Positions 1 to 40,893 of a stretch of 64,000 nt of DNA are shown one piece after another. Both the position numbers and the translations under genes were made by a program. Every line of letters begins with the position of its first letter. The first letter of the stretch is position 1. Under the pieces are notes generated by a model. It was not told where the DNA came from. It saw nothing but the letters and a program-made list of their open reading frames with translations, and made no database searches. The DNA is from Clostridiales bacterium (GTDB lineage: Bacteria > Bacillota > Clostridia > Oscillospirales > CAG-272), in the NCBI GenBank assembly GCA_022793655.1, contig JAAWDG010000014.1, positions 34,636 through 98,635 of the forward strand. The letters are read 5' to 3'.

Positions 1-2
1 AA

Positions 3-347
3 TTGGTGAAAACCGATGCGGGTGCTGCGGCCGTTTTTACAGACAAAAGTTCCTTTTATAGTGACGGCGCAAAAGTGCGCTTGCTGCGTGCACGCGGGAT
101 GCCCGAAACGGTCACCGTTGTATACCGCGTACGTCCAGCGGCCAAGACGGGTGCCGCTGGGGAAAAGGTGTCGCTGCCGGACGAGTTTTTGCCGTTGGCA
201 CTTGACTTTTTGACGGGCAGTGCATATGCGTTGGCCGGCGAGGATGGCCAGGCGGCCAAATGGTTGGAACGCTATAACGTGGAACTTGATGATTTGATCG
301 AATGGTTGACTTTGGCTGACAAAAAATTTGAAGGAGTGGTAAAGTGA
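3..347 (+). CDS. phage-associated hypothetical protein, C-terminal part (ORF open at the window edge)
   Basis: The ORF reaches the left edge. Its stop overlaps the GTG start of the portal-like gene (GTGA at 344-347). No recognisable motif. Confidence 0.4.
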   Translation: MVKTDAGAAAVFTDKSSFYSDGAKVRLLRARGMPETVTVVYRVRPAAKTGAAGEKVSLPDEFLPLALDFLTGSAYALAGEDGQAAKWLERYNVELDDLIEWLTLADKKFEGVVK

Positions 348-2269
348 AGGTTATTGAAAAAGTGAAAACACTCTTTTCACCCGAAAAAAAGAATCTATTT
401 GAAGAAGATATTGTGCGCGCTGTTTTGGAAGAACTGGAAAAGCGAAAAGAAGAGCGGCGGCCGTTTGAGCTGCAGTGGCGGCTGAATGCCAATTTTATGG
501 CGGGTAAACAGCTATGTGAAATTAATCCCTACTCGATGCAGATTGAGGAAATGATGCCGGCTTACGACTATGAAGAACGAGGGGTCTATAACAAGATCGC
601 ACCGCTTATGGAGACGCGTTTGGCCAATTTAAAGAACGTGAGCTTTGCTATGTCTGTCAAGCCGCGAACCGATGAAGCGGATGATTATGATAAAGCGGAT
701 GTCGCCACCAAACTGCTTCGTTATACCAGCTTGCAGGGGAATTTTGACCATAAGAAAAATGTGTTAATGCAATGGGCAGAATTGACCGGCAGCGCTTTTC
801 TTCTCTCTTTTTGGGATGAACAAAAAGGGCCGGCTTTGGCAGTTGATGAAGAAGGTTATCCCTCGGTGCATGAGGGTGAGCTTGGGTTTACGCTGTTGTC
901 GCCTTATGAGGTGTATCCAGAGCATTTGTACAGGCAGGGGATGGAAGAACAAGGCTCTGTCATTATTGAACAGGTGATGAGCGCCAAGGAAATTTATGAT
1001 CTGTATGGGATTGAAACGAAAGGGCGAGAGATTGACACGGTGGTGCTGACCCCGGTTTCTGCGTTGCCTGAGGACTATACCATGAGAATGGGTGATACCA
1101 AGCTGCGCGCCAGTGAAAAAGTGATTACGTATATGGAAAAACCCTCGGCAAAGAACCCAGAGGGGGTCATGGCGTTAATTGCGGCGGGAAAGCTTGTGTA
1201 TTATGATCGTCTCCCATTTTCGCGTATTCCGCTTACGATTTTCCGGGCGAAAGAATCCGCCGGACAATTTTATGGCAAAAGCGTCATTGAGGAATTGATT
1301 CCCTTGCAGCGGGCCTACAATGGCTGCAAAAACAAGATTCACGACTATATCACCACTTTGGCTGCTAATTCCTTTTTGGTGGAAGAGGGCAGCGTTGATG
1401 TAGAGGCAATGGAGGAAAACGGCACCGCGCCTGGTACGCCGGTTGTTTATAAAAAAGGCTATTCGGCGCCTGTACCTCTGCGCCATGAAAGCATGCCTGG
1501 CGAAATTTATGTAGAGTGCGAACAGCTTGCCAGAGATATGGAATATACGGCCGGGGTTTCACAGCTTATGGTCGTTGGCAGCATGAGCGCGGGTATCACG
1601 TCGGGCCGCGCGATCAACAGCTTAAGAGAGATCGACTCAACCCGTATGGCGCTTGCGGCCGACAATATGCGCGCCGGCGCCATTGAAACGGCGAAAATTT
1701 GGCTGGAAATTTATAAAGAACACGCATCGGGTCCTATGGTGCTTTCGGTGGCCGGAACCAATGATTTTGGCAGTGTGCTAACCTGGTGTGCCGACGATAT
1801 TAATTCGTATGATGTCTATTTTGATACCGAAAATGAACTGAAATACAGTCCTGAAAGCCAAAAAGAGGCCTTTCTTTCTGCTTATAACATGGGTCTTTTC
1901 ACTGATGAAAACGGAAGAATTCCCGAACGTTTTAAACTGAGGGCGGCTGAGCTGATGCGCATTGGCGAATATGGAGCGCTGATGAATGAAACTGAACTTC
2001 AAATGAAACGGGCTAAGCGGGAAAACAGCCTTCTTCTGACAGGAACACCGCCGGAAATCAGCGAATTTGACAATGATGATGTGCACATTGAGGAGCATAG
2101 GCGCTTTGCGCTGCAGCTGCGCTTTGATGCACTTCGGGTGAAAAGACCCGATTTGGCTGGGGCGTTCAGCGATCATATTCATGCGCACATGGAAAGGAGC
2201 AGTCAACATGCTGAAAGCGAAAATTCCAAGAGAAACCAAGAAGTATCAGCTGCGAAAGACGAACTTTAA
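344..2269 (+). CDS. phage portal protein (putative)
   Basis: 641-aa ORF. N-terminal segments (FELQWRLNANFMAGKQ, YNKIAPLMETRLANLKN, acidic D/E stretch, then KLLRY) match the general pattern of tailed-phage portal N-termini. It is translationally coupled to its neighbours. Confidence 0.6.
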   Translation: MKVIEKVKTLFSPEKKNLFEEDIVRAVLEELEKRKEERRPFELQWRLNANFMAGKQLCEINPYSMQIEEMMPAYDYEERGVYNKIAPLMETRLANLKNVSFAMSVKPRTDEADDYDKADVATKLLRYTSLQGNFDHKKNVLMQWAELTGSAFLLSFWDEQKGPALAVDEEGYPSVHEGELGFTLLSPYEVYPEHLYRQGMEEQGSVIIEQVMSAKEIYDLYGIETKGREIDTVVLTPVSALPEDYTMRMGDTKLRASEKVITYMEKPSAKNPEGVMALIAAGKLVYYDRLPFSRIPLTIFRAKESAGQFYGKSVIEELIPLQRAYNGCKNKIHDYITTLAANSFLVEEGSVDVEAMEENGTAPGTPVVYKKGYSAPVPLRHESMPGEIYVECEQLARDMEYTAGVSQLMVVGSMSAGITSGRAINSLREIDSTRMALAADNMRAGAIETAKIWLEIYKEHASGPMVLSVAGTNDFGSVLTWCADDINSYDVYFDTENELKYSPESQKEAFLSAYNMGLFTDENGRIPERFKLRAAELMRIGEYGALMNETELQMKRAKRENSLLLTGTPPEISEFDNDDVHIEEHRRFALQLRFDALRVKRPDLAGAFSDHIHAHMERSSQHAESENSKRNQEVSAAKDEL

Positions 2270-3710
2270 GGGCTATTATAAGACAGAGTCTCCCGACGTT
2301 GGATGTATGTTAGATGTTTTAGGCGCCGATCATTCAGAATATCCTGTCATCAAGGGCAGCAAAGAATGGGAGCCTTTTTATACATTTAGTGACGAGAAAT
2401 ATCCCCAATCCATTGCGATGATCGGCGGACAAATCATTGCCTTCTGCCGGCAGTTGGTGGGCGGTGGCCAAACCGATTTGATCTGTGCGGTTGTGATTAA
2501 TCAAAACGGCAAGGCCTACATAGGCGAATATACGAATTATCGCAAGCCGGGCGATACGTCTCACCACCCTTCTGATTCCAATCATCCGCGCAGTATCGTG
2601 CAGTTTAACGTATATCATTCGGATGGTAGCCTGGTTGACGCCGTCGGCGGCCGGTATGACAAAAAAATACTGATTTTTCCGGACAAGGTTTCAATCGATT
2701 ATGGCATTTCAGAGAGTGGTTTCAAGTTTACGCAGTTTGGAAAAGAGATACCAATTCCCACGTTGAAATATGTTACGGTGCATGCTTCCCGTTTGTTTGG
2801 TGTGGACGATAACCGTGTGTATGCATCTGCTTATAATGATTATACCAATTGGGATGTGGACACGGCAACGGATATAAGTCCTGATAATGCATGGGTGTCG
2901 ACCACTGGTGCTAATACAAAAGCCGACAGCGACTTTACAGCCATTTGCGAATATGGCGGCAAGGTTATTGCTTTTAAGCGTGATTTTATGTATCAGATCA
3001 ATAATAACCAAAACCCATTTCGGATCAAAGATGTATCGTCCGTTGGGGCGATCGATTTTCGTTCGATTGCTGAGGTGAATGATACCTTGTATTTTATCGC
3101 AGACGGTGGTGTGATGGCATATGCAGGCGGCCAAGTGCGAAATATCAGCCGGCCGCTTGGTGTTGAAAAATTTACGAGCGGTGTAGCCGGCGCTTTTCGT
3201 GATACCTATTATGTGTATGCAAATAACGTGATCTATGCCTACAATACGATTCATGATTTGTGGAGCAAGATACCGGTTCCCTCTGTGGACAAAAAGCTTG
3301 TTGGTTTTTGTTCGGATGAAAATGCGTTGTATTGTTTGGTCAGCAGCGGAATTGATAAGAATGTCATTTATCGTTTATCAAAAGCGCCTGGCACATGGTC
3401 TTTTGACATTGATCTTTCGACGTTCTCATCGTTTGATGTAAAACGAATCAATAAGATATCTCTATTATGTACTATACCAGACGGCGGCTATGTAAAGGCG
3501 TATTTAAAGGATGAAAACACGATACAAAATTCAGTGGGTATTAAAGTGATTGACAGTACGCTTAAGGGAAAGATCGGACGTGTCATGTTAAGGGCGTTGA
3601 TACGAGGCGGGGCGCATTATAACCATCGCCTACGAATTGAGTGCCATGGCGATGTGGCCGTCAGAGGACTTGAAGTATTGGCCGTGAAGGGAGCGGATAG
3701 TTATGAATGA
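2208..3710 (+). CDS. phage structural protein, beta-propeller-like (function unknown)
   Basis: ATG 2208 is preceded by AAGGAG (2193-2198) and overlaps the portal 3' end by 62 nt. Recurrent aromatic strand motifs (YASAYNDY, YFIADGGVMAY, YYVYANNVIYAY, LYCLVSSG) suggest repeated blades. Confidence 0.45.
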   Translation: MLKAKIPRETKKYQLRKTNFKGYYKTESPDVGCMLDVLGADHSEYPVIKGSKEWEPFYTFSDEKYPQSIAMIGGQIIAFCRQLVGGGQTDLICAVVINQNGKAYIGEYTNYRKPGDTSHHPSDSNHPRSIVQFNVYHSDGSLVDAVGGRYDKKILIFPDKVSIDYGISESGFKFTQFGKEIPIPTLKYVTVHASRLFGVDDNRVYASAYNDYTNWDVDTATDISPDNAWVSTTGANTKADSDFTAICEYGGKVIAFKRDFMYQINNNQNPFRIKDVSSVGAIDFRSIAEVNDTLYFIADGGVMAYAGGQVRNISRPLGVEKFTSGVAGAFRDTYYVYANNVIYAYNTIHDLWSKIPVPSVDKKLVGFCSDENALYCLVSSGIDKNVIYRLSKAPGTWSFDIDLSTFSSFDVKRINKISLLCTIPDGGYVKAYLKDENTIQNSVGIKVIDSTLKGKIGRVMLRALIRGGAHYNHRLRIECHGDVAVRGLEVLAVKGADSYE

Positions 3711-3933
3711 ATATGATAAACGCATGGATACAGTAGAGGACCAGTTATTATACATGAGACGTGAATATGAAGATTTGCTTGAGAATATCAGCGAAGATCA
3801 GCTGACTTTCACGCCGATTGCAAATCATGGCAGCGTGCCGTTTACGCTTGCTTTTGATTTAGAAACCAAACGGCTGTACTTAAAAATGAGAGACGGCCAA
3901 AAATATAGTATAATCATGAATGTGGAGGAGTAA
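3703..3933 (+). CDS. small phage-module hypothetical protein
   Basis: 76-aa ORF overlapping the upstream stop by 8 nt. Same strand and tight packing. Confidence 0.45.
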   Translation: MNEYDKRMDTVEDQLLYMRREYEDLLENISEDQLTFTPIANHGSVPFTLAFDLETKRLYLKMRDGQKYSIIMNVEE

Positions 3934-3935
3934 AA

Positions 3936-4490
3936 ATGTATAATCCTTATGAAGATATTGCCTCTTTGTTAGGGACGGTAAAAAGAAACAACGAAGGCGT
4001 GAGCGCCAAGAAGGTGGAGGATATATTAAAAAACAATCAGGTATATTATCAATCGACCTATTCAGAACTGACTGACAAAGTAGGCAAGACAAAAGAGTAT
4101 ATTACATCAGGCAAAGCGTATAACGATGAGGGGGCAAAAGCGATTCGCGCCGCTTATGCAAAAGAGGGCGGCGTTGCCTCCGGAGCGGTTGCCGCAAAGA
4201 GTGCTGCTGAAAATGAAGGCAATTTAGATTCATATGCGGCAGCTCAGGCAAACAGACAGCGGCAGGCGTTTATCTCAGAAGGGGAAAAGGCGGTAAGCGA
4301 ACGAGCCAACCAAACCTACAGCGCTATGAATGCGGCGGATAAAAATTTAGTTTCTGCTTTTGACGCCGCGCAAAAGGCTATCAACAGCGGTGGAAGCGCT
4401 ATGACCAACAATGCCAAAAATGCAGCTTCCAGCGTGAACGACGCGCTTGATGATTTGTTGGACTATTACGGCATATTGGCAAAACGATAA
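3936..4490 (+). CDS. phage-module hypothetical protein, Ala/Asn-rich and probably helical
   Basis: 184-aa ORF. GGAGGAG lies at 3923-3929 upstream of the ATG. Followed by the terminator at 4512-4560. Confidence 0.5.
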   Translation: MYNPYEDIASLLGTVKRNNEGVSAKKVEDILKNNQVYYQSTYSELTDKVGKTKEYITSGKAYNDEGAKAIRAAYAKEGGVASGAVAAKSAAENEGNLDSYAAAQANRQRQAFISEGEKAVSERANQTYSAMNAADKNLVSAFDAAQKAINSGGSAMTNNAKNAASSVNDALDDLLDYYGILAKR

Positions 4491-4511
4491 AATTGTCGGG
4501 ATATTCGTCAA

Positions 4512-4684: not shown

Positions 4685-6847
4685 ATGAAAAAGAAAATCG
4701 CAATGTTTCTGGCAGCGGCGCTTTTGGGCGGCAGTTTGACGCTTACCGTCGGTGGTGCCGATGAATGGAAAGACACCGGTGTTGACTATCGGGATTCTTT
4801 AGAGACATTTGATTACAATCCGGGCCGCGGACAGGCAAGTTATTCGTGGGTTGTTTGTAAGGACGATGGAACAACGGGTAATGGTGTCGATTTAGACGCT
4901 AAGTTTTCGCAGAGCGGTATGTACTCGCCTATGTTCCAGCTTTCTAATTTTTCCAGCGGTTATATTTGGACAGATGGCGCGAACTCGCCCAATCTCGAGA
5001 CGCATCCTAATAAGGTTGGCGGCGAGAATAAGCCGCTGAATGATCAAACCTTAGATTTTATTGACGAGACTTTTGCGGCGGCAAAGGCAAACGGCGTGGT
5101 TTGCATTCCCCGTTTTGCTTATGATGAGGAAGGCATCATCGGCCGTGATCCTGACGATATCAAATGGATGGTCAAGCACATTGAGCAGATTTCTAAGGTG
5201 CTCAATCGCTATAAGGGCACGGTGATTTCGGTAGAGTGCGGCATGGTTGGCGCATTTGGTGAGATGTGGGGCAGTAAGCATGCAGAGCAGGAGCCCATGA
5301 ATATCATTATTGGCGCCTGGCTCGATAATTTGGATGAAAGCATTATGCTGCAGGTGCGCGCGCCTTCTTATTTGATTCGCTACATTGACCCAGAGGATTA
5401 CTATTTCGGCATGTCAAAACAGCTGCCGTTCAGCGTTGGCTCAAAAGGCTACCGCATTGGTTTTTACAATGACGGCTATTTAGGAACAAGCAACGATTAC
5501 GGTACCTTTGGCGGCGACGATCCGCGTCCTTATAAAAATATGGGCCGTACAGTGGCCGTCGAGTTTATGAAAGAACAGAACAAGCACATTCCCTATGGCG
5601 GTGAGTTTGCTTATGTGGATGACGACGCCTTTTTGAAGGCGAATAATTCGCCGATTTATTCATATGGCTTAGTAAAAGAGTTTTACGATACCCATCTAAA
5701 CTATTTACACAACTTAGCGTCGGATTATCCGCGAATTCCGGCGTATCTAAAGGAAATTGAATTTACCCGTAAGTATGATTTTGAAGGTATGCCGGATGTT
5801 TCTGATTATTATGGAGAAACGGTATCTAAGTTTTTAGTGGATCATATCGGCTATCGCTATGTAGTTCGTTCATCCCAGACGACGAAGAACGCAGACGCCG
5901 GCGGATTTGTTAAATTTAAAGGCACGGTTGAGAATGTTGGCTTTGGCAATTGCCTGTTTGATACGGTTTCTGAATTAGTGGTGATTGGGCCTGATGGCGA
6001 AATTCATACAGGTGACGCTTATGTCGACGTAAAAACCTGGGAAAGCGCAAAAACGAGCGATTATGCGATCACAATGTCAGTTCCGGCCGATGCAAAACCG
6101 GGCGAATATAAGGTGTATCTGCGTACGGGGCTGACTTCTTATGAAGAAGCCAAGACGCCGGCAACCGGTACCATTCGCTTTGCTAACAAAGATATTTATA
6201 ACGAAGAGGTGGGCGGTAACTATTTGGGCACCATCACGGTTAGCAGTAGCAAAGGCGGCTTAGCGACCGAGTTTAGCCAGATTAACACGGGCAAATTTAA
6301 AGATGTTCCGGCCAAAGAATGGTATGCAGACGCGATTGACTATGCAGTGTGCTGTAAATTGATGTCCGGCGTCAGTGGGGCAACTTTTGAGCCGGAAAAG
6401 ACAACCACCAGAGCCATGTTAGTGCAGGTGCTGTATAATTTAGAGGGACGTCCAGCCATTACTGAAAAAGCAAAGTTTACCGACTTAAAAGAAAAATGGT
6501 ATCAAGAAGCAGTGCATTGGGCGGCTCTTAATGGTATTGTAGCGGGCTACTCTGAAACCGAGTTTGCACCGGATAAGCCAATTAAAAGAGAAGAATTTGC
6601 CGCCATTTTGTATCGGTATGCTACGTATAAGAAAATGGATATCACAAAGCGTGCGGACCTTAGCCAATATGAAGATTTTGGTAAGACCTCCAGCTACGCA
6701 GTGCCTGCCCTGAGTTGGGCCAATGCCAACCGATATATTACCGGACATTCCAGCGTGAGCATAGATCCGGCCGGCAATGCGGAAAGAGCGCAGATGGCAA
6801 GCATCTTAATGCGGTTCACTAAAGACACAGCCAATGCAAGCAAGTAA
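4685..6847 (+). CDS. secreted glycoside-hydrolase-like protein (DUF4832/DUF4874-like) with three C-terminal SLH domains
   Basis: ATG 4685 follows GGGGAG. Signal peptide MKKKIAMFLAAALLGGSLTLTVGGA. Contains a GMVGAFGEMWGS-type motif. The C-terminus has three S-layer-homology repeats (FKDVPAKEWYADAIDY.., FTDLKEKWYQEAVHWA.., YEDFGKTSSYAVPALSWA..). Confidence 0.75.
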   Translation: MKKKIAMFLAAALLGGSLTLTVGGADEWKDTGVDYRDSLETFDYNPGRGQASYSWVVCKDDGTTGNGVDLDAKFSQSGMYSPMFQLSNFSSGYIWTDGANSPNLETHPNKVGGENKPLNDQTLDFIDETFAAAKANGVVCIPRFAYDEEGIIGRDPDDIKWMVKHIEQISKVLNRYKGTVISVECGMVGAFGEMWGSKHAEQEPMNIIIGAWLDNLDESIMLQVRAPSYLIRYIDPEDYYFGMSKQLPFSVGSKGYRIGFYNDGYLGTSNDYGTFGGDDPRPYKNMGRTVAVEFMKEQNKHIPYGGEFAYVDDDAFLKANNSPIYSYGLVKEFYDTHLNYLHNLASDYPRIPAYLKEIEFTRKYDFEGMPDVSDYYGETVSKFLVDHIGYRYVVRSSQTTKNADAGGFVKFKGTVENVGFGNCLFDTVSELVVIGPDGEIHTGDAYVDVKTWESAKTSDYAITMSVPADAKPGEYKVYLRTGLTSYEEAKTPATGTIRFANKDIYNEEVGGNYLGTITVSSSKGGLATEFSQINTGKFKDVPAKEWYADAIDYAVCCKLMSGVSGATFEPEKTTTRAMLVQVLYNLEGRPAITEKAKFTDLKEKWYQEAVHWAALNGIVAGYSETEFAPDKPIKREEFAAILYRYATYKKMDITKRADLSQYEDFGKTSSYAVPALSWANANRYITGHSSVSIDPAGNAERAQMASILMRFTKDTANASK

Positions 6848-6866
6848 GAAAAGAGAGTTTCTTATT
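6845..6866 (+). repeat. single copy of the TAAGA-hairpin-TCTTAT repeat family (H hairpin)
   Basis: TAAGAAA-agagag-TTTCTTA followed by TTGT. The 5' arm contains the TAA stop codon of the SLH gene. It has the same flanks as the hairpins at 40699 and 40821. Confidence 0.5.
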
Positions 6867-8251: not shown

Positions 8252-8365
8252 TTGCCTCCTTATTCTTTCTGTTATTAGCGCACCATTTTTTTGGCATCAC
8301 CTTATGAAAAAACAGTGATGAAATAAATGACCGCTCTTGTATTATACCATATCTCTTTAGCTATC

Positions 8366-8457
8366 AAAAAGTGCGACATACCAGCGCAGCTGGAAGTCGG
8401 AATGTCATCCTTTTGGGTGGCAAGATAAACTTTAGAAACAAATCTTCGATTTGTTTC
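8366..8457 (+). repeat. degenerate copy of the structured repeat family
   Basis: CCAGC-gca-GCTGGAA hairpin (8381-8395), GATAAACTTT (8424-8433), then hairpin GAAACAAATC-ttc-GATTTGTTTC (8435-8457). A 12-nt direct repeat ATTATACCATAT occurs at 8341-8352 and 8458-8469. Confidence 0.4.
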
Positions 8458-8501
8458 ATTATACCATATAGCGCGTCCTCTGTAAAGAAAAGCGTTTTTA
8501 T

Positions 8502-9805: not shown

Positions 9806-10016
9806 TTCATAAGTATGAGTGGTTTTTCCTAAATATACATTTGCAAAAGCGATTTGCGTGTGTTAAAATAAGAAGCAGTCATAAGGCTTGTTCTTATCAC
9901 TGAAAAGACTAAATAAATCAATTTGAAAAAAGTTTGTGGCCTGTTTAGGCTGTGTGTCAATGTAGCAGAACGATAAAATATTTGGCAGATTAGGTAAAGA
10001 AAACAAGAGGCAGGGT

Positions 10017-13227: not shown

Positions 13228-13256
13228 TTGAAAAACAGGGTGGTTTAAGGTATAAT
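13228..13256 (+). promoter_or_regulatory. near-consensus sigma-A promoter of the asnS leader
   Basis: TTGAAA (13228-13233), 17-nt spacer, TATAAT (13251-13256). Confidence 0.6.
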
Positions 13257-13274
13257 AAAAAAAGACCGTTTGTA

Positions 13275-13357
13275 TAAGAAACCTGTGAATTTCTTAAAAA
13301 GTTTATCTTTTCGCCTTTACAAGCGAAATTTCGGCCAGGCCGGAACCGTTAAACTTT
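13275..13357 (+). repeat. single unit of the structured repeat family inside the asnS 5' leader
   Basis: TAAGAAA-cctgtgaa-TTTCTTA (13275-13296). Then AAAGTTTATC (13298-13307) / GTTAAACTTT (13348-13357) enclose TTTCGC..GCGAAA and TTCGG..CCGGAA hairpins. Confidence 0.5.
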
Positions 13358-13558
13358 AAAGTAACTTAAATCTCGCAGGATATACAATGCTATAGAGTTT
13401 TTTTAAAAACTTGCGGTTATCTTAGATTGCTGACACTTAGTTATATCATCCATGTGATTTATAGTGTTTACGAAAGCGAACCGGCATGTAAAATTTGAAC
13501 ATGGCTGCATGGCGTTTTTATCCGCAGACCATGTATGGGAAAGAGGATAGGATTTTAC

Positions 13559-20608: not shown

Positions 20609-20671
20609 CATTATATGCAGCATAGGGGCGTTTCCATACATAGAAGTCGTCAAATTTAATAAGGCGATGAA

Positions 20672-20914
20672 TTAGCCGTTAAATAAGGCGTCATAAGATA
20701 CCTGTAAAATTTTGCTAAGTTCACGTATTTCATAGTCGGTGATCCGACGTTTTTTTGTTTCAATACGTGTGATCATATTTTTATCCATGTCTAACCCGTT
20801 GCGCTGTAAAAATTCGGCAAAATCTCGCTGTGACATATCCATTTTTAATCGAATGTTACGAATATTGAAGCCAATTAAGTTTTTATTTTCTGTTTTTGTT
20901 GTCGAATTTGACAT
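20672..20914 (-). CDS. XRE-family helix-turn-helix transcriptional regulator (paralog 1)
   Basis: 80 aa. IRNIRLKMDMSQRDFAEFLQ...ITRIETKKRRITDYEIRELSKILQVSYDALF is a Cro/C1-type HTH. Confidence 0.8.
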   Translation of the reverse strand: MSNSTTKTENKNLIGFNIRNIRLKMDMSQRDFAEFLQRNGLDMDKNMITRIETKKRRITDYEIRELSKILQVSYDALFNG

Positions 20915-20936
20915 TTTTTTTCCCTCTTTCTTAATT

Positions 20937-21010
20937 TTGTCTCATTTTTTGCAATTTTTACTTGATTTTATCATGCGCTTATGGTATAATCGGTTGTAGA
21001 AATGAGACAA
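20937..21010. promoter_or_regulatory. putative operator pair upstream of XRE paralog 1
   Basis: Perfect 11-bp inverted repeat TTGTCTCATTT (20937-20947) / AAATGAGACAA (21000-21010). It brackets extended -10 like elements on both strands (TGATAAAAT on the minus strand, TATAAT on the + strand). Confidence 0.45.
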
Positions 21011-21011
21011 G

Positions 21012-21302
21012 TTACGTTTGCTTTTCATCATTTCCATCAATCAAATATTGATAAGAGACCTTGAAAAAACTGCATAAAGCCTTTATTTCAATATCTGTGA
21101 CAAAGCGTTCGTTATTTTCGATGCGCGTAATTATATTTCGGTCAATATCATAGCCGCAGAGTTGCAGTTTGGCTGCTAAAGCGCGCTGTGATAGTTTGTG
21201 CTTTGTGCGCAGTTCCAGGAGGCGGTCGCTGATTAAGTTTTTGTTTCCGTCTTCAGCACGCAGTCTGGCTGTGTTGTGTTTTTTCTTGTTCATTTTTAAC
21301 AC
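21012..21302 (-). CDS. XRE-family helix-turn-helix transcriptional regulator (paralog 2)
   Basis: 96 aa. LLELRTKHKLSQRALAAKLQ...ITRIENNERFVTDIEIKALCSFFKVSYQYLI aligns position for position with paralog 1. Confidence 0.8.
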   Translation of the reverse strand: MLKMNKKKHNTARLRAEDGNKNLISDRLLELRTKHKLSQRALAAKLQLCGYDIDRNIITRIENNERFVTDIEIKALCSFFKVSYQYLIDGNDEKQT

Positions 21303-21321
21303 CTCTTATTTTTTGATTTAT

Positions 21322-21394
21322 TTGGCTCATAATTAGCACCACTACTAATATATTAATTTATTTTTTATTTTAGTCGGTTGTAAAAGTGAGACAA
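21322..21394. promoter_or_regulatory. putative operator pair in the divergent XRE / AbrB-like intergenic region
   Basis: TTGGCTCATAA (21322-21332) and AAGTGAGACAA (21384-21394) have the same ~62-bp spacing as at 20937/21000. The 20-nt CGGTTGTAAAAGTGAGACAA (21375-21394) repeats 20991-21010 with 2 differences. Confidence 0.4.
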
Positions 21395-21423
21395 AAATAA
21401 ATTTTAGATGGTAGGGTCCAATA

Positions 21424-21690
21424 ATGATGTTGCGGATTTTGTGGATTGATAAGTTCGGACGCGTTTATTTGCCTGAAGATATACGAGAAACTTATCATTT
21501 ATATAAAGAAACTTATCTCGCGCTGCTTGAGGGCGAGGAAAATAGCCTTGTGCTTCGTTCCTACAAACCGGTATGTACGGTTTGCGGTTCAGACAAGGAT
21601 GTATCAATTTATAATAATACACCTTTTTGCGGAAAATGTTTGCGGAAACTTGACGTAATGCCTCCGCTTGAGAAAATTAAAGACGAATAA
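21424..21690 (+). CDS. AbrB/SpoVT-like DNA-binding protein with a C-terminal CxxC...CxxC zinc ribbon
   Basis: IDKFGRVYLPEDIRETYHL...SLVLRS fits the looped-hinge AbrB/MazE pattern. It is followed by CTVCGS...FCGKC. Confidence 0.6.
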   Translation: MMLRILWIDKFGRVYLPEDIRETYHLYKETYLALLEGEENSLVLRSYKPVCTVCGSDKDVSIYNNTPFCGKCLRKLDVMPPLEKIKDE

Positions 21691-21716
21691 AAACAAATTT
21701 TGTTTGACCAAGGGTA

Positions 21717-24030: not shown

Positions 24031-24561
24031 TTAGGATGGATAGGTAATTTGTATATCAGATAAAACAGCTTCAAACCCGTTTGTTTCACCGGTGATTTGT
24101 ATGGGCAGGCCGTTTTCATCGAGCAAAACAACGGCGCGTAGCTGTTTGTTTTCATAGAGTTGTTTGGTAACGCTTTTATCCTCAAAATGATCCGGAGCAG
24201 CAGAGGTCAGCATAGTATAATCAAGCAGAAAAAAACGAGCGAGCGCCAGACTACCAAGGCAGGCCTCCCCTTCTGTGATGGGAATGCGGGTATCGCCAAA
24301 GCAAAGGTAAGGTTCATTTTGCTGCAATTCATAAGAAACACCTTTCATGGCCGAAGGCTCTGCATAGGTGACAGCGTAGTTTTCCGAATCGGTAATGCAA
24401 ATAGTAATGCGTGCCTCGCCATTGTCATTTGAAAGAGCCGCTTCAATGGTCATAGGCGTGCGCTGATATGCCAATATATCTTGTTTTTCTGCTGAAGAGG
24501 AGCAGCCGGCTAAAAGAAGCAGTGCCGCTGCCATCATAAGTATAAATGTGTTCTTTTTCAT
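24031..24561 (-). CDS. lipoprotein, function unknown
   Basis: MKKNTFILMMAAALLLLAGCSSS signal peptide with a lipobox. Confidence 0.6.
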   Translation of the reverse strand: MKKNTFILMMAAALLLLAGCSSSAEKQDILAYQRTPMTIEAALSNDNGEARITICITDSENYAVTYAEPSAMKGVSYELQQNEPYLCFGDTRIPITEGEACLGSLALARFFLLDYTMLTSAAPDHFEDKSVTKQLYENKQLRAVVLLDENGLPIQITGETNGFEAVLSDIQITYPS

Positions 24562-24665
24562 ATGATTTTCTCCCATTTTGATGAAATAGTCATCAAGATC
24601 ATCTTGGTTTTATCATATGAAATGTGAGAATTAGATAGTACAAAAGTATAATTTTCAAAGAAACC

Positions 24666-24926
24666 CTAAGAGCAAATCATAGATTTGCTCTTAGTTATAC
24701 TACAAAATTTCCGCAAACCGAAAGTTTGCCGGTTCCGGCAAAGCCGGAATGGCGCTTGCAAAAGCGCAAAGGTAAACTTTCTAAGAGGAAACCATATGGT
24801 TTCCTCTTATTTATACGAAAACGATTCACTGAACTGGAAATTATGCGGTTCTGCCTATCGGCAGAATGCCGTTTGTGAAAACGGCAAGTGTAATTTCCTA
24901 AGAGCAAATCATAGATTTGCTCTTAT
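24666..24926 (+). repeat. tandem array A of the structured repeat family (hairpin, junction, hairpin, junction, hairpin)
   Basis: Hairpins at 24666-24694, 24781-24810 and 24898-24926 (the first and last share 28 identical nt). Junctions are closed by AAAGTTTGCC/GGTAAACTTT (24721-24780) and GGAAATTATG/TGTAATTTCC (24836-24898). Each encloses two hairpins. Confidence 0.7.
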
Positions 24927-24988
24927 TTTACCACACCAAAGCTAAAAACACAAGGCAGTAAAAAGTTCAAATAATCTTGGACAGACTC

Positions 24989-25017
24989 TTGAAAAAAGGG
25001 GCGAGTTGTTGTATAAT
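24989..25017 (+). promoter_or_regulatory. near-consensus sigma-A promoter (ACT/UPF0210/V-ATPase cluster)
   Basis: TTGAAA (24989-24994), 17-nt spacer, TATAAT (25012-25017). Confidence 0.6.
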
Positions 25018-25050: not shown

Positions 25051-25320
25051 ATGAAAGCTGTAATTACCGTAATTGGTAAAGATAATAAAGGGATCATTGC
25101 AAAGGTTTCGTCAGAATGTTTTTCATGGGGCGGCAACATCAGTGATATTTCGCAAAGCGTTATGAAAGAGTATTTTGCCATGATTATGTTAGTGGATATA
25201 GCGGGTCTCACCATTCCATTTACTGAGTTTGTCGAAAAGATGGAAGCGCTTGGACGCGAAAACGGCCTTGAGATCGTCACGATGCATGAGGATATTTTCA
25301 ATTCCATGCATAAGATATGA
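25051..25320 (+). CDS. ACT-domain protein (UPF0237 family)
   Basis: ATG 25051 follows GGAGACAGGA. MKAVITVIGKDNKGIIAKVS is the typical UPF0237 ACT start. It is paired with a UPF0210 gene, as in many Firmicutes. Confidence 0.8.
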   Translation: MKAVITVIGKDNKGIIAKVSSECFSWGGNISDISQSVMKEYFAMIMLVDIAGLTIPFTEFVEKMEALGRENGLEIVTMHEDIFNSMHKI

Positions 25321-36412: not shown

Positions 36413-36441
36413 TTGTCAAAGAAAGAAATGTGTGTTATTAT
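36413..36441 (+). promoter_or_regulatory. sigma-A type promoter upstream of the SPFH gene
   Basis: TTGTCA (36413-36418), 17-nt spacer, TGtTATTAT (36433-36441). Confidence 0.4.
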
Positions 36442-36442
36442 A

Positions 36443-36509
36443 TAAGAAACCAGCAGGTGTCTTACAAAGTTTATCTTTTGCTATAAGGATTGAAATAGAT
36501 AAAAGAACA
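36443..36509 (+). repeat. degenerate unit of the structured repeat family in the SPFH-gene leader
   Basis: TAAGAAACC-agca-GGTGTCTTA (36443-36464), then CAAAGTTTATCTTTTGC. About 40 nt are nearly identical to the asnS leader copy (13273-13313). Confidence 0.45.
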
Positions 36510-39709: not shown

Positions 39710-40519
39710 ATGAAAGTTGGCGTTATTGTACGGTATCAAAATATCGAGGAAGAGTTTGCATGGATGCAGGAACATGGCATTGACAATTGTCAGTTTTATA
39801 TGTTTCCCGATCAAATTTCGGATGAAAACGTGCAGCGTGTGTGCCGGCTGCGTGAAGAGTACGGCATCGAGATTACCTCGCTTGTTGGCATGTGGACAGG
39901 GGTGGCCGCTTGGAATTTTTCGGCGGGTCCGGTCACGCTTGGCTTGATCCCTGTGGCCTATAGAGACCGCCGTATGGCCGAAATGCGGGTGTATTGCGAT
40001 TTGGCCGCGCGCCTTGGTATCAAGGATGTCAGCTCGCACATGGGCTTTATTCCCGAGTATATGTATGACCCTGTTTATCGGGAGTGGATTCCGGCTATGC
40101 AGGATTTAATGAAATATTATGAGGCCAAGGATATCTATCTTGATTTTGAAACCGGTCAGGAAACGCCGATTACTATGTTGCGGGCCATTCAGGATATTGG
40201 CAGTGATCGGCTGGGCGTGAATTTTGACAGCGGCAATTTGATTTTGTATGGCAAAGCAAATCCAGTAGATGCATTAGATATTTTGGGGCCATATGTGCGC
40301 GGCGTGCATGCGAAAGACGCCTTATATCCGACCGATCCTGTTCATTTAGGTGAAGAAAAAGCCTTAGGTGAAGGCAAGGTGAATTTTGGCGCACTACTTG
40401 CAAAGCTTAGTGAAGTGGGCTATACCGGGGCGATCACCATTGAACGCGAGTGCGCGGGCGAAAAGGAACGAGAGGATATTTTAAAAGGCAAAGCTTTGTT
40501 GGATACGCTGTTAATGTAA
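39710..40519 (+). CDS. sugar phosphate isomerase/epimerase (xylose-isomerase-like TIM barrel)
   Basis: 269 aa. Motifs VSSHMGFIP, YLDFETGQE, GVNFDSGNLILYG, HAKD and TIERE. Confidence 0.75.
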   Translation: MKVGVIVRYQNIEEEFAWMQEHGIDNCQFYMFPDQISDENVQRVCRLREEYGIEITSLVGMWTGVAAWNFSAGPVTLGLIPVAYRDRRMAEMRVYCDLAARLGIKDVSSHMGFIPEYMYDPVYREWIPAMQDLMKYYEAKDIYLDFETGQETPITMLRAIQDIGSDRLGVNFDSGNLILYGKANPVDALDILGPYVRGVHAKDALYPTDPVHLGEEKALGEGKVNFGALLAKLSEVGYTGAITIERECAGEKEREDILKGKALLDTLLM

Positions 40520-40540
40520 CATATATTTTTTAGCTACCGG

Positions 40541-40850
40541 AAAGATTGGCTTGTCATCCCTGTTGGGTGACAAGTCAATCTTTCTAAGAATAATCCTTAC
40601 GGATTATTCTTATTATAACATAAAAATTTCAGCTCTCTCAAAGTTTATCGTTTCCAGCTTCGCTGGAATGCAGCCTTGTAGGCCGCAAGGTAAACTTTCT
40701 AAGAACAAACCATACGGTTTGTTCTTATTGTAACATAAAGTTTACCGCCTCCTCGAAATTTAACGTTGCCGATTTATCCGGCAGGCCGTGCAGACGTACT
40801 TGCACGGCCAGTTAAATTTCTTAAGAACAAGCTATGTAGCTTGTTCTTAT
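40541..40850 (+). repeat. tandem array C of the structured repeat family (long hairpin, then three conserved-flank hairpins alternating with two multi-stem junctions)
   Basis: Long hairpin at 40541-40583. Conserved-flank hairpins at 40584-40613, 40699-40728 and 40821-40850. Junctions closed by AAAGTTTATC/GGTAAACTTT (40640-40698) and GAAATTTAAC/GTTAAATTTC (40755-40820). Confidence 0.7.
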
Positions 40851-40859
40851 TGTCTGCAC

Positions 40860-40893
40860 AAAAAACAAACGCTTTTTTCGCGTTTGTTTTTTT
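40860..40893 (+). terminator. rho-independent terminator
   Basis: AAAAACAAACGC (40861-40872) / GCGTTTGTTTTT (40880-40891) with a T-run. Confidence 0.8.

Follow-up and report, generated by a model that had tools for sequence, protein, structure and literature searches.

A tandem array of hairpin-bounded three-way junctions as a probable locus of a genus-restricted interspersed repeat family in a Clostridiales genome

Array A (24666-24925) lies between two divergent genes in a 64,000-nt stretch of a Clostridiales bacterium genome (GCA_022793655.1, contig JAAWDG010000014.1; this whole stretch is hereafter the window), upstream of the ACT/UPF0210/V-ATPase operon. With moderate confidence, we read it as one locus of a family of modular interspersed repeats that conserve structure and are restricted to the genus, probably non-autonomous DNA that is mobile or propagated by recombination. 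The fold itself is real and is kept by compensatory changes, and copies are scattered beside unrelated housekeeping genes on both strands. Judging from aligned sequences of congeneric species, loci have been gained, lost or decayed. Because the family is dispersed, restricted to the genus and comes and goes between species, a role of array A as a control element of the ACT/UPF0210/V-ATPase operon is effectively excluded. A first-pass annotation of the region had left open a DNA-level element beside an independent transcript, and the dispersed family with its turnover makes the former the best reading.

Array A comprises two complete copies (A1 and A2) and one truncated copy (A0) of a ~116-nt unit. 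The unit opens with a 27-nt linker, continues with a three-way junction (3WJ) of 60 nt and ends in a palindromic hairpin of 28 nt, termed P4, that directly adjoins the junction. The bounding hairpin CTAAGAGCAAATCATAGATTTGCTCTTA (CTAAGAGCAAATC-ata-GATTTGCTCTTA, 28 nt) occurs in identical copies at 24666-24693 and 24898-24925, and a third hairpin with a different stem sits between them at 24782-24809; the degenerate hairpin pattern has four matches in the window, compared to 0.00 expected from shuffles. All parts of the array are read on the plus strand. A0 (24666-24694) is a solo P4 with a 13-bp stem and an ATA loop, equal to the P4 of A2; it is the remnant of the truncated unit and matches the family model (described below) at 25 bits over its P4 part only. 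The A1 linker (24695-24719) begins with the conserved TTATAC, which on the other strand reads as a -10-like GTATAA. It leads into the A1 3WJ (24720-24781), composed of an 11-bp stem P1 (24720-24730/24771-24781), an 8-bp P2 with an AAA loop (24732-24739/24743-24750) and a 6-bp P3 capped by a GCAA loop of the GNRA type (24752-24757/24762-24767). The following P4 (24782-24793/24798-24809) has 12 bp, an ATAT loop and the tail TTATTTAT. The A2 unit repeats this order with a linker (24811-24835), a 3WJ (24836-24898) and a P4 (24899-24925). Its P1 has 11 bp including two G-U pairs (24836-24846/24888-24898), P2 has 8 bp (24848-24855/24860-24867), and P3 has 7 bp and a GTGA loop, again of the GNRA type (24868-24874/24879-24885). 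The P4 of A2 (24899-24910/24914-24925) has 12 bp, an ATA loop and the tail TTATTTTA, and is terminator-like on the plus strand.

Folding with RNAfold, scored as z against 200 shuffles per unit, gave a minimum free energy (MFE) of -52.8 kcal/mol for A1 (z = -7.68) and -47.1 kcal/mol for A2 (z = -8.13), with 0 of 200 shuffles as good in either case. For the entire array, z is -13.5 when it is folded as RNA; folded as single-stranded DNA (ssDNA), the plus strand gives -14.2 and the minus strand -13.1. Across A1, A2 and the three units of a second array in the window (C1, C2 and C3), z ranges from -6.7 to -10.7, and a single unit, B, read on the window plus strand, has z = -1.7. The two identical bounding hairpins, the third hairpin and both junctions were all found where the first-pass annotation had placed them, and the junctions were reproduced exactly by RNAfold. 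Its proposal that the repeated hairpin is a duplication footprint was also borne out: the ~40 nt on the 5' side of the first hairpin resemble the 3' half of an A2-type unit, and the bounding hairpins reflect the duplication of a partial unit. Because they are identical palindromes, these hairpins are also inverted repeats of each other. In the global RNA fold of 24655-24940 (MFE -120.6 kcal/mol) the first hairpin pairs with the last, forming one long stem around the array that competes with the local hairpins.

Covariance-model analysis revealed that array A belongs to a family. The model R1 was built from four units, in which 18 of 37 pairs were already compensatory, and the window was searched with filters off; the model R2 was then built from all seven units. 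The search found seven intact units at four intergenic loci on both strands, in addition to remnants. R1 scored B at 64.9 bits, C1 at 54.2 bits and D, the weakest, at 33.9 bits, whereas R2 gave the seven units 75.8-128.8 bits and yielded no further intact members in the window. In the seven-unit alignment, 95.1% of the pair cells are standard pairs, and 23 of the 37 pairs have changed on both sides, values that none of 500 shuffles matched; slid controls have at most 7 such pairs. Pairwise identity between units is just 47-71%. The conserved sequence is confined to a few blocks, namely the P1 base AAAGTTT/AAACTTT, the junction core C-GK-TTC...GAA-TG...CAAG, the P4 base TAAGA/TCTTA and the linker start TTRTA(A)C. 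The 3WJ is tight, with an A/T-rich closing stem and two G+C-rich arms, and the units occur singly or head-to-tail.

The family members lie beside unrelated housekeeping genes; the window neighbors are yfbR-like, M14 peptidase, asnS-type, lipoprotein, ACT, sugar-phosphate isomerase-like and pgk genes. The covariance model located two single units, D (8342-8464, plus strand), antisense in the 5' untranslated region (UTR) of the yfbR-like gene, and B (13268-13383, minus strand), antisense within the leader of the asnS-type gene. Array C (40514-40856, plus strand), recognized by its fold and by the covariance model, is composed of C1, a simple long hairpin plus P4, followed by C2 and C3, each a 3WJ plus P4. 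The array is in sense with the AP_endonuc_2 gene and is located past its stop codon but ahead of its terminator (40860-40892). Its likeness in architecture to array A, noted in the first-pass annotation, was confirmed by folding, and both arrays belong to the same family. Locus E (36441-36500, minus strand), picked out by the TAAGA/TCTTA motif, is a remnant with a degenerate P4 and a P1 arm, ~80% identical to B over 40 nt. In total, the motif TAAGA-N8-22-TCTTA has 10 matches in the window, compared to 0.56 expected.

Two solo TAAGA...TCTTA elements, at 9869-9896 and 6845-6864, have poorly paired centers; their status is uncertain, and they may be solo or decayed P4 hairpins. The element at 6845-6864 lies directly past the stop codon of an SLH-domain gene, and the nucleotides next to it are TTGT, a feature that it shares with array C. 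The class II tRNA synthetase gene (asnS/aspS-type) next to unit B has a ~280-nt leader (13257-13534) after a near-consensus promoter; this leader has no T-box or other Rfam match, and antisense unit B fills 116 nt of it.

The element did not correspond to any described RNA family. Rfam 15 gave 0 matches in the whole window at gathering thresholds, and the searches of arrays A and C and unit B at E<=1-10 returned chance-level matches only, far below gathering. ARAGORN found no tRNA or tmRNA. The open reading frames (ORFs) of arrays A and C are short, with TTG or GTG starts and without ribosome-binding-site context, and the sole peptide stretch shared between the two arrays is the translated conserved P1 3' arm plus P4. 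A literature search found no description of the array A element.

The genes around array A are divergent, as the first-pass annotation had stated. On the minus strand, 24031-24576 encodes a protein of 181 aa with a signal-peptide/lipobox-like N-terminus and without a Pfam match, and ACT starts at 25051 on the plus strand. The near-consensus ACT-side promoter TTGAAA-17-TATAAT (24989-25017) was likewise confirmed, with a gap of 64 nt between array A and its -35 box. Such proximity is the only argument for a leader, riboswitch or upstream control element of the ACT/UPF0210/V-ATPase operon, a reading that we consider close to untenable. The array lies upstream of the promoter and outside the transcript, and the junctions have 0-3 unpaired nucleotides, which leaves no room for a ligand pocket. 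Moreover, the units occur at four unrelated loci. Among 17 relatives inspected upstream of ACT, 15 carry no element, the congener L265 retains a decayed remnant, and L267, which shares the lipoprotein/ACT synteny of the window, has junction units that follow the lipoprotein promoter; at L271 the site is empty. A special link to the ACT/UPF0210/V-ATPase promoter is not supported, as L267 alone of these relatives has junction units upstream of ACT and the copies elsewhere adjoin unrelated genes.

On the minus strand, the sequence contains a probable promoter of the lipoprotein gene with an extended -10 box, TTGTGT-17-TGgTAAAAT (24953->24925), whose -10 abuts the P4 of A2. It is conserved in L265. 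Here and throughout, promoters and terminators are consensus matches, and the -35 box of this one is below the threshold of the scan tool. Given this minus-strand promoter, array A most likely belongs, in antisense, to the leader (5' UTR) of the divergent lipoprotein gene, which makes doubtful the earlier statement that it is part of neither flanking mRNA.

A similar placement recurs at the other promoter-proximal loci. All five of them (A, B, D and E in the window, and F in the congener L272) run antisense to the gene downstream, and at each the end that carries P4 is beside the -10 box, at a distance of 0-22 nt. P4 abuts the -10 at A and at D (TTTACA-17-TGgTATAAT, 8486->8458), and is separated from it by 1 nt at E (TTGTCA-17-TGtTATTAT, 36413-36441, the Band_7 promoter), 18 nt at B (TTGAAA-17-TATAAT, 13228-13256) and 22 nt at F (TGgTAAAAT). 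The only 3'-UTR locus, array C, is in sense orientation, ahead of a real terminator. Around unit D there is an exact 12-nt direct repeat ATTATACCATAT (8341-8352 and 8458-8469), which on the opposite strand reads ATATGGTATAAT and forms the extended -10 box of the probable yfbR-like promoter. It may have arisen as a target-site duplication, or it may mark where a second unit, now lost, began.

The shared placement at five of six loci, with P4 0-22 nt past the -10 and in the same orientation to the downstream gene, might also be expected of exapted cis-acting 5'-UTR modules, in which the antisense hairpin and junction would stabilize the host mRNA or bind a common regulator. In line with this, structurally similar but sequence-unrelated units stand in the orthologous lipoprotein leader of L267. 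We nevertheless hold such modules to be unlikely, since the host genes are functionally unrelated, the copy number varies from 1 to 3, and array C lies in a 3' UTR in the opposite orientation. The predicted transcription starts, read from sequence, fall inside P4, so that the hairpin would be incomplete in the mRNA. In addition, the lipoprotein leader of L265 has lost the structure, and the DUF5722 leader of the window lacks the unit that L272 carries.

Strand preference was examined at the level of wobble pairs, loops and tails. The first-pass annotation had pointed to G-T wobbles on the plus strand only. This is true of array A, in which three G-T wobbles in the two P1 stems are all on the plus strand, but it does not extend to the family, where 11 G-U cells stand against 6 A-C cells, an asymmetry that is not significant. 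For C2, C3 and B, the fold of the opposite strand is as good or slightly better, and strand-specific RNA folding is thus not established family-wide. On the element strand, defined as the strand that reads linker-3WJ-P4, three of the seven P3 loops are of the GNRA type (A1 GCAA, A2 GTGA and B GTAA). For the six hairpins of the arrays (A0-A2 and C1-C3), the element strand has 5-6 T among the 8 nt past the P4 core stem and the opposite strand 2-4; in the P4 tails of the solo units B and D the count is only 3. The GNRA loops and U-rich tails favor the element strand, and because of the T-rich tails P4 looks like a weak, G+C-poor intrinsic terminator in sense orientation only. Its core stem is 9-12 bp and G+C-poor, and the terminator rule of the scan tool made no call on the element strand. 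The plus strand is the leading strand across the window (GC skew +0.07 to +0.19) and carries seven of the eight units counted intact (A0 included), whereas remnant E is on the minus strand.

These strand features bear on the main rival explanation, an independent sense small RNA (sRNA), which is possible. A promoter-like GTGAGA-17-TATAAT found by the consensus scan (24624-24652, plus strand) is a possible start of a sense transcript of array A; its TATAAT falls in sequence that resembles a decayed P1 3' arm. In its full form, this explanation holds that array A is a tandem multi-copy sRNA gene transcribed from that site, that each unit is a 3WJ RNA ended by P4, and that the copies elsewhere are further sRNA genes or 3'-UTR-derived sRNAs. 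We grant this a modest chance. It would account for the strong covariation despite 47-71% identity, the GNRA P3 loops and U-rich tails on the element strand, the 10/12 promoter match 14 nt ahead of the first hairpin, and the compensatory change between two strains described below. However, as read from the sequence, single units have no promoter of their own, and B, D and E, together with F of L272, are antisense in host 5' UTRs directly past the host promoters. The wobble counts favor no strand, with C2, C3 and B folding equally well in antisense; the loci are lost or decayed in congeners without replacement, and no member was found outside the genus among ~85 Clostridia loci. Tandem sRNA families such as LhrC1-5 of Listeria are likewise head-to-tail structured units, each with a terminal hairpin and a U-rich tail, but the units here differ from them in lacking their own promoters, in being antisense in host 5' UTRs in many cases, and in occupying loci that are not conserved in congeners.

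For the turnover of loci, the sequences compared with the window (64 kb of the source genome) included ~26 kb from two congeners. In L081, which is of the same species (99.3% identical), array A is unchanged except for three substitutions in the 420 nt upstream of ACT, two of which convert one G-C pair to A-T in the P4 of A1 (the middle hairpin) and are therefore compensatory. L265 has 81-85% nucleotide identity to the window and the same alr/lipoprotein/ACT synteny. Homology to the window ends precisely at 24644 and is regained at 24902. Between these points, the 257 nt of the window give way to 117 nt without significant structure (z = -1.2), and all that is left of the array is a degenerate version of the last hairpin.

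The second congener, L272 (GCA_022791195.1), is 79-86% identical to the window and has no array C; the stop codon is followed by 13 nt and then by the identical terminator. At locus F, in the leader of a DUF5722 gene, L272 carries a member (46.8 bits) and a decayed second unit, where the window has just 26 nt beginning GTATAAAAC, with a GTATAA motif. At locus E, the unit has decayed in L272 as it has in the window. This turnover makes the family at least as old as the genus, with single loci being born and dying. In another sample of the same species (L264, 1139-1217, Logan SRR11195287) the contig ends inside C1 of array C; the repeats evidently break short-read assemblies.

Beyond these sequences, no member was found in 80 UPF0210 loci or in L266-L269 and L271 (~85 loci); across the ~1.24 Mb searched, the family model matched only L081 and L264, of the same species, and the congener L272. 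A candidate in L078 (7636-7721, 27 bits) was rejected as a member, being an ordinary terminator pair. Among IMG/VR viral contigs, the pattern AAGRTAAACTTTNTAAGA gave 61 single matches, of which the covariance model recognized 0 as family members, and a blastn search of plasmid and phage collections with array A returned no match. A pattern scan of metagenome contigs gave at least 120 matches; those listed are chance matches without the hairpin-plus-junction context, and the scan is uninformative rather than negative. A generic junction scan met too many weak matches in coding DNA for enrichment to be quantified and served only for spotting candidates.

L267 (GCA_964403505.1; UPF0210 83% identical at the amino acid level) has two multibranch units, at 8294-8368 and 8374-8442, in the orthologous lipoprotein/ACT site. 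Of these, one forms a 3WJ whose loop is GTAA, the other a four-way junction (z = -3.9 and -4.1). The units begin 3 nt after a TGaTATAAT box, on the strand of the lipoprotein gene, and have neither sequence similarity to the window family nor a TAAGA hairpin. Other metagenome-assembled genomes of Oscillospirales have their own dispersed tandem clusters of G+C-rich hairpins, which may be analogous lineage-specific repeat families (L044 260-325, 714-801 and 6415-6483; L010 9467-9547; L062 996-1079; L025 3031-3112; L068 18887-18977). In L044, GTTCCC-N4-GGGAAC and TGCCCC-N4-GGGGCA occur at three loci within 15 kb, whereas the hairpins of L010 and L062 have AGTGAWAT between them.

Comparison with known repeat systems suggested that the closest published architecture is that of the Neisseria intergenic mosaic elements (NIMEs), which combine dRS3 inverted repeats with RS repeat units. 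There, repeat units of 50-150 bp from many families are flanked by short inverted repeats, whose termini are conserved and whose center varies, and the arrays so formed are dynamic; some RS units have short terminal inverted repeats, and NIMEs have been proposed as the target of a recombinase and reported only from Neisseria (PMC1797815). They both have an inverted repeat with conserved 5-6-bp termini and a variable center, TAAGA...TCTTA here and ATTCCC-N8-GGGAAT in Neisseria. In arrays A and C the TAAGA...TCTTA hairpins flank units of 85-95 nt, within the NIME size range, and both systems form intergenic arrays whose unit number differs between related genomes. Nevertheless, the dRS3 consensus is unrelated to the P4 sequences, and the two systems come from different phyla and share no sequence similarity. 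The center of P4 is fully palindromic and covarying, and the units fold as a conserved 3WJ with a conserved core. Moreover, the elements here are promoter-proximal in a fixed orientation, no associated phage was seen, and the scan of 30 window ORFs revealed no recombinase.

Repetitive extragenic palindromes (REPs) and bacterial interspersed mosaic elements (BIMEs), or REPINs, of Proteobacteria are mobilized by RAYT transposases (Y1 HUH enzymes), whose gene the repeats flank. They are species- or genus-specific extragenic palindromes that form arrays in UTRs, can fold as RNA or ssDNA, and vary in presence among relatives. The family resembles them in its genus-specific foldable palindromes, UTR arrays and presence/absence differences. 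REPs, however, are single imperfect hairpins of ~20-40 nt with a 5' GTAG, in similar copies and usually in alternating orientation, whereas the units here are 116-nt composites, arranged head-to-tail, 47-71% identical and without GTAG, and no RAYT was present among the ORFs scanned. The pneumococcal BOX element (boxA, variable boxB and boxC) is a modular intergenic repeat of Firmicutes with a stable structure, located in UTRs. The family shares with it a modular build, a variable count of internal modules, a stable predicted structure and the UTR location. Compared to BOX, the modules are different and show no sequence similarity to it; BOX lacks a hairpin-bounded 3WJ, and its copies are far more alike.

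An integron-type attC array or a CRISPR-like array is very unlikely. Either would fit branched, head-to-tail folds that conserve structure rather than sequence; recognition by folded structure would apply as in attC, which also has a branched terminal structure and tandem order, and C3 carries ATTTAAC ... GTTAAAT, which fits the R''/R' consensus (R'' RYYYAAC, R' GTTRRRY). That core is found in C3 only, being absent from A1, A2, C2, B and D. Cassette ORFs are absent, as the linkers are only ~27 nt, no integrase or cas gene was seen among the same 30 ORFs, and the copies are dispersed. As for a CRISPR-like array, the P4 'repeats' differ from one another (63-100% identity) and the 'spacers' (88 nt) are themselves conserved structures.

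For a repeat family propagated at the DNA level, we propose the following mechanism. The units would be non-autonomous mobile or recombination-propagated DNA, whose nested palindromes would be recognized by a putative enzyme, which could be an HUH/Y1 transposase that binds hairpins or, as has been proposed for Neisseria dRS3, a site-specific recombinase that acts at P4. The TTRTAAC junction motif may be the preferred target, as hinted by the direct repeat at D and the GTATAA in the empty F site, and such a preference would explain the head-to-tail arrays. If P4 with its U-rich tail acts as an intrinsic terminator on the element strand, sense insertions in 5' UTRs would be purged, whereas antisense ones, and sense ones in 3' UTRs, would be tolerated; the orientation rule would then follow from termination in sense only. 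Array A, antisense in the lipoprotein 5' UTR, would be harmless. The compensatory changes may have arisen by selection on a single strand in its folded state, as RNA or as ssDNA, or else by templated repair within palindromes.

Several observations weigh against this reading. The scan of the 30 window ORFs revealed no gene for the enzyme, that is, no transposase, recombinase, integrase, cas or RAYT gene. The copies are old and divergent, with no recent burst. A flanking direct repeat is present at unit D only, while unit B has just a loose TTRTAYA at both ends and the array units share one TTRTAAC between neighbors, so that there is no clean rule of target-site duplication, such as a MITE would show at every copy along with terminal inverted repeats. 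The orientation rule comes from six loci and was framed after seeing them, on promoters that are mere consensus matches, with that of array A below the scan threshold. The junction core is also conserved in sequence and three of seven P3 loops are GNRA, which is more typical of functional RNA than of selfish DNA.

More tentatively, the units might be a new kind of mobile structured element in Clostridia, a 3WJ plus terminator hairpin recognized through its fold rather than its sequence by a dedicated hairpin- or junction-binding enzyme, and inserting in an orientation-specific manner at TTATAC/-10-like sites just downstream of promoters; we regard this as a speculative possibility. If it were true, the sequence-unrelated multi-hairpin clusters in L267, L044, L010 and L062 would be sister families of one widespread class. 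In a variant, the sense RNA would be a trans-acting structured sRNA carried by the mobile element.

Two other regions of the window deserve mention. An ORF at 344-2269 has a P22-like/SU10-like phage portal domain and is followed by ORFs without a Pfam match; the left end of the window (probably 1-4500) may be a prophage edge. The region 20650-21700 (given as 1.4 kb) has no ORF of at least 100 aa and a G+C content of 0.40; it contains small ORFs, two on the minus strand and one, with a CxxC...CxxC motif, on the plus strand.

Structured interspersed repeats such as REP/BIME, NIME, BOX and Correia elements are known in detail from a small number of model pathogens, and hardly any have been described in uncultured gut Clostridia. 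The present family mixes a NIME-like architecture with RNA-like features, namely covariation, a conserved core and some GNRA loops, which raises the question of whether the fold is kept by a protein partner, by ssDNA recognition during mobilization, or by an RNA role. For noncoding RNA discovery it carries a caution, as covarying, stable, tandem structures near an operon promoter may be dispersed repeats, and loci and congeners should be compared before a function is assigned; such arrays also break short-read assemblies. The orientation rule also raises the idea that the places in which selfish repeats can persist depend on the terminator that they carry.

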